Shown one piece after another: positions 52,801 through 55,800 of a DNA stretch of 64,000 nt. Position 1 is the first letter of the stretch. The number at the start of each line of letters is the position of its first letter. This DNA is from Escherichia coli. Its GTDB lineage: Bacteria > Pseudomonadota > Gammaproteobacteria > Enterobacterales > Enterobacteriaceae. The stretch lies in the NCBI RefSeq assembly GCF_041248615.1, contig NZ_CP158426.1; one strand, 5' to 3'. A program made the position numbers.

Positions 52801-55800
52801 GGTGGTGCTGCAGGTATCCGTGCCAACAGCGTGGCGGATATTAGTGCTATCAAAGAGATTGTCTCCCTTCCGATGATAGGGATTATCAAACGCGATTACC
52901 CTGGCAGTGAGGTGTTTATCACGGCCACTCTCCGGGAAGTGGATGAGCTGATGACCGTTGAGCCGGAAATTATTGCCCTGGATGCTACTGCGCGCCCGCG
53001 CCCTGGTGGTCAGACGCTGGAAGAACTGGTCACGCAGATCCGCGCTCGCTACCCGTCCATACTTCTGATGGCAGATATAGCAACAGTAGAAGAGGCAGTG
53101 ACAGCTGAACGTCTGGGTTTTGACTGTGTGGGCACTACGCTCTACGGCTATACCGCAGAAACTGCCAGGCATGTGCTGGCGGAAAATGACTGTGGATTCT
53201 TACGTGAGGTCCTGAAAGCGGTCAGCGTTCCGGTCGTGGCGGAAGGGAATGTCGACACCCCGGAGTGCGCCGCACGTTGCCTGACATTAGGCGCTCATAC
53301 CGTGGTGGTTGGGGGGGCAATCACTCGTCCGCAGCAGATAACGACACGCTTTATTGCAGCGATCGCCTCGTAAAGCACCGATGAGGCATGATATTTTGCT
53401 GGGAATAAGCGATAATTATCGCTTATTCCATATTGAGAGTGCTATGCAGTTCCCGATTAGCTCGGCAGGGGCTAAATCATGGTTATCCGGTCATGCTGCG
53501 CATGGATAATCGCTCGGAATTTAACACTCTCGCGCTGACACTGGCTGAATGGGCATAGATACTCGCAGTAAAACGAGAGCTCAGCCAGCCTGGTCGAGTT
53601 ACCCCTGATAGAGGAATACTGATCCTACCCCATGTAATGTGGACACAAGCCTAAGTGATGTTCTGGTTTTCAAATTGTTCCGTACTGAGACCACCACACC
53701 AGCTGTGCCCTAACAGGCACAGTTTCAGCACTCCTAAGCAACCGTAAAATGGCACCAGTTTCACAAGCAATTGTGCTCATTATTATTGCTATAACAAAAA
53801 CCTTTTTTTCTGATGAATGAATTATTAATATAATTCTGATCAAACACCTGTTTTTTTAACCTACAGAAGGAGTTATTATGAAAAAATACTCTTCTCCCGT
53901 CCTTGCACTCATTCTTGTTAGCAACAGTATGGTATCCTCCGCTGCCACAAAAGAAATCTCAAAAACAGCTTATGTCTGTAATGGAAATAAGACAATGGAG
54001 GTGGTCTATATCAACACCACTGCTGGGAACTCATATGCAGTGATTAATCAGATGGATGAGATGATACCTATGCAGCTAATGAAAATGGCCTCCGGAGCCA
54101 ATTACGAAGCCATCAATAAAAGATACTCATATAAACTGTACACAAAAGGTAAAAAAGCCAATCTGGTGGAAGGGAATGATAATCCTGTCTTAAGCAACTG
54201 TTCATCGGCCGAATGACAGCCAGAGCCTGTCAGTAATTCTGTGTAAATGCCTTTTCTTTAAAGTGACCGTCAGGACGGTCACTGATTACCCATTCTGAAT
54301 TCAGTGCAGAATTAAAACATGTGTGCAAAATAATTTAATTCAGACAGCTTTTTATTTCACTATGGCTATCCCAGAACAACCAGTACAAATAATAAAAGAC
54401 ATATCACAGCAACACTCCACACTGACAGCGCAAAAATAAATGCCGCCTTTGTTATCTTCATATACAAGCAACCTGTCCTGATAATCACCAACTCATGTTT
54501 TATTCTTAACCATTCGTCACAAATACAACAAAAAATAACAGCAGCAGCACCGATATCACAATATAAGATACATTATTCAACACCTGAATCCCCCGCCGCT
54601 TCTCTCCCCTTTATAAAACGCCCCTTCCGGAATCCAGACCGCTGCAGTGCACGACGAAGATGACCGTATACCGTCTTGTCATTCTGCCCCGTCTCTTCTG
54701 TAATCTCCGCAATACTTAAACCTCTGTAATACCGGTTCAGTACCGCTCTGCGCTCTTCCAGCGTCAACACACCTCCGGCCGCTCTCAGATTCAGCATCGA
54801 CTTATTCAGAATACAGCAGGCCTCTCCGGTAAAAAGAATACGAACAATATCTGTATACTCATCATCACAGAATACAAAATAATATCTGAATGACCTGCCT
54901 GACTGCACCCTTCTTCTGTCTGATATGGCATCTTCTATATATCTGATTCGACTGCTTACGGTTCCAAATATCTCTCGCAGGGCTTTTTCAAAATAAATAT
55001 CTCTCGTCGCCAGGATTATATCCAGCATCTCTGTACCTCATTATATCCCGGGGGACTCCCCCCGGGACAGATATCTAAATCCTGACCTGTCAGAACTCAA
55101 AATTCACACCAGCATTCCACGATGCGGATGACCCACCTGCAGCAACTGCAACTTTTCCTGCCACATTCTCTGTGAAACGGTAGCCCACGCCCACCGCAAT
55201 GGCCTGCTCATCACGGTAACCACCAACGGCTGCTGTCGCGTTAAATTTTCCAACACTGTATGGCTGGAAAAGACCTGCCAGTGCCGCGCTCTGGGCTGCA
55301 CTCTCCCTTAACTCCTTCCGGTTCTCTTTAATCTGCTCCTGCATATTATTCATTCTCTCTGTCGCCATCTTCTGCCAGGCTTCCGTCAAATCCAGACGAT
55401 GACTGTTATTCCTTATCGCTGCTGTATTTGAGGCTATTGCTGCATCCGTCTGCGCCCTGTTCTTCACAAGCACATCGCTGAGATGTTCTGCCTGGCTTTT
55501 CGCTTCTTTACGGGCATCCCGTACACTTTTATCTGTATAAGCCCGGGAAACCTGAACTGTTTCATCCGCTTTTTCTTTTATTTCATCCTGAAGAGCAAGA
55601 GAAGATGCATCCGTATACGCCACCGCTGCCGATGTGCCTGCAATAATATCCCTGCTGAGTTCAGCATGAACTGTTGAAAGACGTTTATCTGTCTCGTCAA
55701 TTCTTTCATTCGTCTGCAACAAAAAGACCTGTGCATCATCAAATCGTTCATTCAGTTGCCCTACCGTCGCTGCATCTGTGTTATTGATACCATCAGACAC

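Follow-up and report, generated by a model that had tools for sequence, protein, structure and literature searches.

It is accepted that lysozyme inhibitors contribute to tolerance of lysozyme. PliC of Salmonella enterica (SEN1802/STM1249) is a periplasmic inhibitor of animal c-type lysozyme. It was originally purified from Salmonella Enteritidis (Callewaert et al. 2008, PMC2267010); a lysozyme affinity column served to isolate it, and a knock-out lost inhibitory activity and was more lysozyme sensitive (PMC2267010). The Cys pair of the family forms a stabilizing disulfide (PMC2267010), and motif 1 (SxSGAxY) lies on the loop between strands β4 and β5, which in family members reaches into the active-site cleft of lysozyme (motif definitions from PMC5507604). 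Escherichia coli MliC (YdhA) and Pseudomonas aeruginosa MliC (lysozyme complex, PDB 3F6Z) belong to the same Pfam family, form an eight-stranded β-barrel with the motifs SGAxY and TKG/SKG and the same disulfide, and target c-type lysozyme. E. coli MliC is an outer-membrane-anchored lipoprotein encoded in the core genome next to anmK. Brucella PhiA (7DPY) and Neisseria ACP (5MY7, 6GQ4) are members of the same β-barrel fold family.

We analyzed a window of 64,000 nucleotides from an E. coli genome (NCBI RefSeq assembly GCF_041248615.1, contig NZ_CP158426.1) that holds the same island cargo as the selC-associated AGI-3 of avian pathogenic strain BEN2908. A small secreted protein with MliC-like Cys spacing and an SGA motif had been noted in this cargo in a preliminary description; the ORF, the signal peptide, C34 and C108, and S72-G73-A74 were all confirmed (Table 1). 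We conclude that the gene very probably encodes an E. coli orthologue of PliC, an exported periplasmic c-type lysozyme inhibitor, and was horizontally acquired with a selC-associated island. It is a gene of an ordinary, already known kind, for which a family, a mechanism, and an annotation of this very protein exist. There is nothing new in its identity, since RefSeq already labels the ORF “c-type lysozyme inhibitor” (WP_000760915.1, identical coordinates; source record, E. coli NRZ14408).

TABLE 1 Coordinates of pliC, its sequence features, and its surroundings in the window
Feature	Position	Strand	Basis or remarks
IS3-family transposase remnant	53354..53574		ORF fragments; parts the sugar module from pliC
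Conserved 5' region moving with pliC	53729..53877	+	−10 TATAAT at 53829-53834, weak −35, RBS at 53868-53872
pliC coding sequence	53878..54216	+	ATG start, 112 aa with stop (ORF listing)
pliC Sec signal peptide (MKKYSSPVLALILVSNSMVSSA)	53878..53943	+	Residues 1-22; predicted signal peptidase I cut after Ala22
Motif 1 (SxSGAxY), codons M70-A71-S72-G73-A74-N75-Y76	54085..54105	+	Clade alignment and 3F6Z alignment
Motif 2 (YxxxTKG), codons Y85-K86-L87-Y88-T89-K90-G91	54130..54150	+	Strand β6; clade alignment and 3F6Z alignment
9-bp GC-rich hairpin (GUGACCGUC-AGGA-CGGUCAC)	54262..54283	+	Fold; 46 nt past the pliC stop
Small sigma-70 region 4-like HTH protein	54573..55028	-	Pfam Sigma70_r4_2, E = 2.2e-07; context only
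YadA-like trimeric autotransporter adhesin	55090..56382	-	Pfam YadA_anchor, E = 2.2e-16, and YadA_stalk; context only

The ORF is preceded by an AGGAG ribosome binding site spaced 5 nt from the ATG, as read from the sequence. The N terminus of the precursor (MKKYSSPVLALILVSNSMVSSA followed by ATKE) has a positive charge, then a hydrophobic core, then a small-x-small S-S-A site, and in the alignment the predicted cleavage site coincides with the N-terminal residue of crystallized mature Salmonella PliC (ASQEISK...); both signal peptide and cleavage site were judged by eye from sequence and alignment. The leader contains no Cys, none occurring before residue 34, and the lipobox pattern [LVI][ASTVI][GAS]C was not found in it on reading the sequence. 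The mature protein has 90 residues, a mass of 9.93 kDa, a calculated pI of 8.56, and just two cysteines, C34 and C108.

The search with the Pfam MliC profile that the preliminary description had proposed gave a significant match: PF09864 (COG3895) scored 46.4 bits against a gathering score of 22 (E = 3.9e-12, profile positions 1 to 66 of 67). The NCBIfam equivalog NF010363, “c-type lysozyme inhibitor,” scored 155.7 bits (cut-off, 127; E = 4.4e-46), whereas the second NCBIfam lysozyme-inhibitor equivalog, NF010364, reached 17.2 bits, below its cut-off of 261. In the other comparison proposed there, with chromosomal mliC/ydhA, the relation proved to be distant, as BLASTP against K-12 MliC returned only a local match of 16/40 residues (E = 0.001), and identity in the structural alignment with MliC was 25%. 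Because mliC is present on the chromosome in 5425 of 5426 complete E. coli genomes and matches the island protein over only these 40 residues, the island protein is an extra inhibitor, as had been thought. It shares the Pfam family with MliC, as the preliminary description proposed, and could on that ground be imagined as an MliC-type lipoprotein anchored in the membrane, whether a duplicate of mliC/ydhA or a second copy. That is extremely improbable and is refuted at the sequence level by the leader without Cys and therefore without a lipobox, by the NF010364 score, by the short K-12 match, and by the nearest relatives of the protein, which are the PliC proteins of Salmonella, Proteus, and Morganella. 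The assignment to the family thus stood, the membrane-anchored subtype did not, and because of the missing lipobox the sequence places the protein in the soluble periplasmic PliC subtype rather than with the lipoprotein MliC.

The closest solved structure found by sequence search was that of Salmonella PliC (PDB 3OE3; E = 7e-40). An AlphaFold2 model of the island protein has eight strands in an antiparallel β-barrel, with a pLDDT of 80 to 93 over the barrel, and Foldseek aligned this model with 3OE3 at a TM score of 0.93 to 0.94 and an rmsd of 1.0 to 1.3 Å. The next Foldseek matches were Brucella PhiA, the P. aeruginosa MliC-HEWL complex, and Brucella PliC. In an alignment of 17 PliC-clade sequences, A71, S72, G73, N75, and Y76 of motif 1 are invariant and M70 and A74 nearly so, and in motif 2, Y85, K86, L87, Y88, and G91 are invariant, with T89 and K90 nearly invariant. 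The two motifs align with ISASGAKY and, in chain B, with YIWWTKG of P. aeruginosa MliC in 3F6Z. The first Ser of motif 1 is replaced by Met in the island protein, exactly as it is in the active Salmonella PliC. C34 is invariant in the clade alignment and C108 at least 90% conserved, which, by analogy with the family, points to a Cys34-Cys108 disulfide.

The Salmonella and island proteins belong to the same equivalog, NF010363, and their mature forms, both of 90 residues, are identical at 64 of 90 positions (71%). They have in common a Sec signal peptide lacking a lipobox, the cysteine pair, and the MKMASGANYEAI loop and YKLYTKGK strand, both of them identical. Similarity at the DNA level is found only in the region coding for the mature part (75% over 53976-54202). 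The pI differs, being 8.56 in the island protein and 4.76 in the Salmonella protein, because 27 substitutions take away five acidic residues and introduce basic ones; calculated values for Salmonella and Proteus PliC lie in the acidic range of 4.6 to 5.0. Activity has been demonstrated for Salmonella PliC and is predicted for E. coli PliC by homology to it; a search found no experiments on the E. coli protein in the searchable literature.

Brucella PhiA, a structural relative of the island protein (7DPY; TM score, 0.85), raises the question of the target. PhiA and earlier proposals for Ivy and MliC are the model for a reading in which the fold is that of PliC but the physiological target would be a muramidase or lytic transglycosylase of bacterial origin, whether from the same cell or from a competitor, and not the lysozyme of the host. 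In one study, extraintestinal pathogenic E. coli (ExPEC) without Ivy, MliC, and PliG showed little change in lysozyme resistance in vitro, and its authors argued that such inhibitors in the periplasm may chiefly hold endogenous autolysins in check (PMC5955474), which would fit such a target. PhiA, however, has GDLKKY at the aligned position instead of an SGA loop, while the island protein retains both lysozyme-binding motifs unchanged; a PhiA-like reading of the protein was rejected because it keeps the SGA motif. PhiA and Neisseria ACP share only 16 to 24% identity with it in structural alignments. Moreover, the 71%-identical Salmonella PliC binds and inhibits hen lysozyme (PMC2267010), and Pfam and the RefSeq annotation of the neighbors showed no muramidase or secretion-system effector gene adjoining pliC. 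We therefore regard a bacterial target as improbable and a host c-type lysozyme as the likely target of the island PliC.

The preliminary description had placed the gene alone between a sugar module and an adhesin gene. It does stand alone: upstream, a 504-bp gap with an IS3 remnant separates it from PTS-EIICB/NanE sugar genes, and downstream a 356-bp gap precedes a convergent HTH gene (in RefSeq, “sigma factor-like helix-turn-helix DNA-binding protein”), which comes between pliC and the adhesin gene, so the two are not directly adjacent. Part of the remnant (53481-53574) matches positions 8898-8985 of plasmid locus L004 at 77.7%, inside an annotated IS3 family transposase, and strain IMT5155 has longer transposase fragments at this position. 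The RefSeq start of the adhesin gene gives a shorter protein (window position 56328). Two small ORFs, 53670-53843 (-) and 54366-54491 (-), had no Pfam match; the latter was considered as a counterpart of the 41-aa gene beside Salmonella pliC and proved unrelated on comparison.

With an adhesin gene nearby, Neisseria ACP structures (6GQ4, 5MY7) among the distant fold matches, and a weak match to the Pfam Nm-ACP profile, the island protein might be supposed to be an ACP-like adhesin or surface protein that acts with the YadA-like adhesin. The profile match (PF24574) reached 14 bits against a gathering score of 27.5, the adhesin and HTH genes lie on the strand opposite to pliC, and on plasmids the pliC unit travels without the adhesin gene, so that a role of this kind has hardly any likelihood. 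In Salmonella, too, pliC stands alone within DNA that was acquired horizontally. The loci themselves differ: the Salmonella gene lies beside a cold-shock-domain gene and a gene of the Ail/Lom outer-membrane protein family, which we take to be pagC-like, and the island gene in an E. coli selC island.

The GC content of pliC is 0.35 to 0.40, compared with ~0.52 in the adjoining sugar genes, and BEN2908, IMT5155, and 20Ec-P-124 carry it in an identical chromosomal context. No tRNA was found in a scan of the window, so selC lies beyond it; the selC association is based on the neighboring setC, on the identical BEN2908 cargo, and, as regards the 2006 description of AGI-3, on papers that cite it.

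A second pliC allele, 88% identical, is found on ~30 plasmids. Like the island gene, it (e.g., WP_025263478.1, pEF7-18-51_1) encodes 112 aa, with 87 to 88% protein identity, and it shares the RBS and the 150 bp upstream of the gene. Unlike the island gene, it is carried on plasmids of ~88 to 214 kb and adjoins a PerC-family regulator gene and IS elements, and the pI of its mature protein is 6.5, close to neutral, rather than 8.56. Homology between the island gene and the plasmid allele is confined to 53721-54222 (85.5% identity), and in a three-way alignment similarity begins near 53729 in three different contexts. The perfect −10 in this 5' region, together with its conservation, suggests that the region may function as a promoter. 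In a scan for consensus promoters and terminators, sites were no commoner than in shuffled sequence and none was usefully placed for pliC; the scan missed the TATAAT site because the −35 is weak. The hairpin past the stop lies outside the segment common to the island and plasmid alleles. It has no U-tract and was missed by the terminator scan, and the whole stretch that includes it folded with a z-score of only −1.36, so we do not claim it as a terminator and regard it as a weak candidate. No structured RNA was matched in an Rfam scan that covered 53300-54700 (E ≤ 1).

Such a gene, lying among IS remnants in a mosaic island and without a strong promoter or terminator called by the scan, might be a silent or decaying passenger with no current function. 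This is quite unlikely, as the ORF is intact, every family-invariant residue is retained, 144 of the 176 records with the gene have it at an identity of 99% or more, and the RBS and 150-bp upstream region have been kept between the island and plasmid alleles despite ~15% divergence. The gene occurs in 174 of 5426 complete E. coli genomes (~3%), in contrast to the Salmonella gene, which was reported in all sequenced Salmonella genomes (PMC2267010). Poultry was the origin of 27 of 49 sampled pliC-positive chromosomes versus 5 of 60 genomes in a background sample drawn from the whole set (Fisher P = 1e-7), a figure that takes no account of clonal relatedness or sampling bias.

A mechanism can be proposed by extension from the P. 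aeruginosa MliC-lysozyme complex and the biochemistry of Salmonella PliC. The precursor would be exported by Sec and cleaved after Ala22, and the mature protein of 90 residues would fold in the periplasm into the predicted eight-stranded β-barrel, closed by a putative Cys34-Cys108 disulfide. When a breached outer membrane lets c-type lysozyme into the periplasm, the β4-β5 loop (S72-G73-A74-x-Y76) would enter the active-site cleft of the enzyme and the YxxxTKG strand would add contacts, so that peptidoglycan hydrolysis is blocked. The gene appears to form an independent unit of one gene that brings its own upstream region, probably gained horizontally as cargo of a selC-associated AGI-3-type island, as its low GC content and the IS remnants alongside suggest. 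Soluble PliC would join the core MliC lipoprotein and probably raise lysozyme tolerance in hosts rich in lysozyme, poultry among them. An ivy mutant of avian pathogenic E. coli (APEC) was reported to keep residual periplasmic inhibitory activity, for which an extra pliC was suggested (Vanderkelen 2012), and this speaks for the proposed role. A contribution to lysozyme tolerance, which the preliminary description had suggested for this gene, is plausible by homology, and that description was right in substance.

We also considered whether the island allele is a host-adapted PliC. Hen lysozyme is itself very basic, and since the island PliC is basic as well, its affinity could differ from that of Salmonella PliC. 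The flipped charge (pI 8.6 versus ~4.8 in Salmonella and Proteus), the unchanged loops, and the mostly poultry carriers make an altered affinity or range of avian lysozymes conceivable, though host adaptation of this kind seems to us rather unlikely. If the allele were host adapted, it would be a candidate source of the unexplained residual periplasmic activity against lysozyme in APEC strain CH2 and could share in the virulence effect so far credited to the sugar genes of AGI-3. MliC reportedly affects the virulence of APEC in chickens.

The finding of PliC on the island alters no concept. As an accessory and mobile inhibitor, present in ~3% of E. coli, linked to poultry, and also plasmid-borne, PliC would slightly extend the list of APEC and ExPEC fitness factors, and it is a candidate explanation of strain-dependent periplasmic inhibitor activity.

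The small open reading frame (ORF) singled out in the preliminary description as an MliC-like lysozyme inhibitor is present exactly where it was placed, with an ATG start and 112 codons in the ORF listing. RefSeq record NZ_LT599825.1 (E. coli NRZ14408), whose positions 32001-96000 are the window, labels this exact ORF WP_000760915.1, "c-type lysozyme inhibitor." Family membership was confirmed by the Pfam MliC profile (PF09864), which matched over almost its whole length at 46.4 bits (gathering score, 22; E = 3.9e-12), and by the NCBIfam equivalog NF010363, "c-type lysozyme inhibitor" (155.7 bits, cutoff 127). 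The second NCBIfam lysozyme inhibitor equivalog, NF010364, scored below its cutoff (17 bits versus 261). On the basis of two curated models, the product is a member of the c-type lysozyme inhibitor family; the gene is already annotated, the family is well understood, and this much is already known.

The membership held, but the subtype did not: the gene is pliC, which encodes a predicted periplasmic inhibitor, rather than mliC. The precursor reads MKKYSSPVLALILVSNSMVSSA/ATKEISKTAYVCNGNKTMEVVYINTTAGNSYAVINQMDEMIPMQLMKMASGANYEAINKRYSYKLYTKGKKANLVEGNDNPVLSNCSSAE, where the slash marks the predicted cleavage point. The leader, which contains no cysteine and therefore no lipobox, combines two lysines with a hydrophobic core and an S-S-A cleavage site; as judged from this leader, an MliC lipoprotein is excluded. 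The cleavage point aligns with residue 1 of crystallized Salmonella PliC (PDB 3OE3), and the two mature proteins, each of 90 residues, have 64 in common (71%). K-12 MliC (from NC_000913.3) gave a BLASTP match that was local only and distant (16 identities over 40 residues, E = 0.001). Because there is no lipobox and the K-12 MliC match is only local, the protein is PliC, not MliC, and its gene is no second copy of chromosomal mliC. Chromosomal mliC is found in 5,425 of 5,426 complete E. coli genomes, and pliC is therefore an additional inhibitor, as had been proposed.

The solved structure closest in sequence is also 3OE3 (E = 7e-40). An AlphaFold2 model built from an alignment of 17 sequences has eight strands, a mean pLDDT of 78.8 (80 to 93 in the barrel), and superimposes on the 3OE3 chains with TM scores of 0.93 to 0.94 and rmsd of 1.0 to 1.3 Å. 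The next structural matches were Brucella PhiA, P. aeruginosa MliC bound to hen lysozyme (3F6Z), Brucella PliC, and Neisseria ACP. A role as an ACP-like adhesin did not pass the Pfam test.

Two motifs define the family: the β4-β5 loop carries SxSGAxY, and β6 carries YxxxTKG (PMC5507604). They appear here as M70-A-S-G-A-N-Y76 and Y85-K-L-Y-T-K-G91; motif 1 has methionine in place of its first serine, exactly as Salmonella PliC does. Both the SGA motif and the cysteines noted earlier lie in the mature part, which has two cysteines, C34 and C108. Across 17 aligned members of the PliC clade (from E. coli, Klebsiella, Salmonella, Proteus, Morganella, and one Pasteurellaceae bacterium), A71, S72, G73, N75, Y76, Y85, K86, L87, Y88, G91, and C34 are invariant, and conservation is 90% or higher for M70, A74, T89, K90, and C108. 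A profile from this alignment finds the P. aeruginosa MliC of 3F6Z (E = 8e-4) and pairs its ISASGAKY and YIWWTKG with the two motifs. Salmonella PliC was purified on a lysozyme column, with MASGANYEAIDK among its tryptic peptides (PMC2267010). A PhiA-like role in inhibiting bacterial muramidases, or a role in regulating endogenous autolysins, is disfavored because PhiA lacks the SGA loop and the close Salmonella orthologue inhibits lysozyme.

Features around pliC (positions in the window unless another record is named)
Feature	Position	Strand	Remark
pliC ORF	53878-54216	+	mature part 53944-54213
Ribosome binding site, AGGAG	53868-53872	+	5 bases 5' of pliC ATG; from sequence
Perfect TATAAT	53829-53834		within shared upstream region of pliC
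PTS_EIIC and EIIB, NanE	upstream of pliC		Pfam
Sigma70_r4_2 HTH	downstream of pliC	opposite to pliC	Pfam
ORF, 41 codons	54366-54491	-	between pliC and HTH gene; annotation absent
YadA-like adhesin	55090-56382	-	YadA_anchor/stalk; Pfam
pliC/HTH/adhesin block	53600-57400		
Transposase remnants	53354-53574 and 57107-57282		flank the block
ISEc31, copy 1	42516-43729	-	inverted relative to copy 2; cargo segment between
ISEc31, copy 2	NZ_LT599825.1 105018-106231	+	
Second pliC allele	NZ_CP063488.1 locus L004, 7001-7339		plasmid pEF7-18-51_1

The island begins directly after setC (~38.3 kb in the window) and extends beyond the window end. Its cargo runs ugpB, phytase-like esterase, MurR/RpiR regulator, PTS EIICB, NanE, IS remnant, pliC, HTH, YadA-like adhesin, IS remnant, split transketolase, ascorbate-type PTS, and LacI regulator, an order identical in APEC BEN2908, APEC IMT5155, and pig isolate 20Ec-P-124. 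According to papers that cite it, selC-associated island AGI-3 was described from BEN2908. The sugar module does adjoin pliC as first described, but the HTH gene stands between pliC and the adhesin gene. The annotated adhesin gene measures 1,239 nt in NRZ14408, the strain studied here, 1,266 nt in BEN2908, and 1,359 nt in IMT5155 and 20Ec-P-124, which suggests a variable passenger domain. The peptide encoded by the 41-codon ORF (…MKITKAAFIFALSVWSVAVICLLLFVLVVLG) is very hydrophobic; the ORF has no Pfam match, is unlike the small gene beside Salmonella pliC, and may be a chance ORF. Elsewhere in the window, the annotation of 16188-34331 lists iatC, a giant gene (11.1 kb) for an inverse autotransporter, followed by eilA, which encodes a HilA-family regulator, and by genes whose products are a needle-tip protein of the IpaD/SipD type, a translocon subunit of the YopB/SseC type, and a chaperone of the SycD/LcrH type; this region looks like a chromosomal eilA/eip-type type III secretion accessory locus beside yicS-nlpA-setC.

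The GC content of pliC with its flanks is 35 to 40% (40.1% for the coding sequence, 48.2% for the window), compared to ~52% in the adjoining sugar genes. Across the pliC/HTH/adhesin block it is 0.32 to 0.53, mostly ~0.4 to 0.48; because of this lower GC and the transposase remnants on both sides, the block may have entered as a single piece. Homology with the plasmid allele is limited to 53721-54222 (85.5% identity), the gene plus ~150 bp upstream, and in a three-way alignment similarity starts near 53729 in three different contexts and covers the TATAAT and ribosome binding site. At the Salmonella locus, where a gene of the Ail/Lom family and one with a cold-shock domain lie nearby, the mature coding part alone is alignable (75% over 53976-54202). 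Together, the GC contrast, narrow homology, and shared upstream start indicate a single-gene unit, complete in itself, that has moved repeatedly. A dead passenger gene is unlikely, since the ORF is intact and, with its upstream region, highly conserved. Compared with BEN2908, NRZ14408 appears to carry the segment between the TonB-dependent receptor side and the antirestriction/YeeU-CbtA side in the opposite orientation; this suggests that an IS-mediated inversion turned ~30 kb around, pliC included.

DNA similar to pliC was found in 174 of the 5,426 genomes, with 154 of the places on chromosomes and 30 on plasmids. Identity of the best match reached 99% or more in 144 records and was 80 to 90% in 28. 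Sources were compared in evenly spaced rows of the pliC and mliC match lists. Poultry or other birds were the source of 27 of 49 pliC-positive chromosomes versus 5 of 60 genomes overall (Fisher odds ratio 13.5, P = 1e-7, in a test that ignores clonality and sampling). Isolates from chickens and other birds are thus strongly overrepresented among the sampled carriers of chromosomal pliC; as the comparison is uncorrected for clonality or sampling, this is treated as a lead. The second allele (88% nucleotide and 87 to 88% amino acid identity to the island copy) is carried by ~30 E. coli plasmids of ~88 to 214 kb, immediately downstream of the gene for a PerC-family regulator and among IS elements. 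In PLSDB, ~40 plasmids encode a protein 80 to 95% identical to the island protein, and ~700 large plasmids, mostly from Klebsiella, encode one 39 to 45% identical (e.g., NZ_CP090433.1 98676-98966); most of the rows sampled label the latter "c-type lysozyme inhibitor."

Mature island PliC is basic (calculated pI 8.56; 10 K+R versus 8 D+E), whereas Salmonella, Proteus, and Morganella PliC are acidic (pI 4.6 to 5.0), with the remaining alleles from E. coli and Klebsiella in between. It differs from Salmonella PliC by 27 substitutions, with five acidic residues lost outside the motifs; the lysozyme-binding motifs are unchanged despite this shift. Hen lysozyme is itself very basic, and the affinity of island PliC for it could differ.

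By analogy with the family, the precursor would be exported and cleaved, a disulfide would form, and the SGAxY loop would enter the lysozyme cleft, giving a gain in lysozyme tolerance. The initial interpretation, refined to pliC, is supported. Vanderkelen et al. propose that an extra pliC could account for the inhibitory activity left in the periplasm of APEC CH2 (PMC3458809); the literature searched contained no functional study of E. coli PliC. A 2018 ExPEC study treated the known inhibitors as common to pathogens and commensals (PMC5955474), and accessory pliC therefore seems little noticed. The poultry association, plasmid allele, and charge shift are modest leads, and the ~700 plasmids with a relative indicate that lysozyme inhibitors are common plasmid cargo in Enterobacterales.
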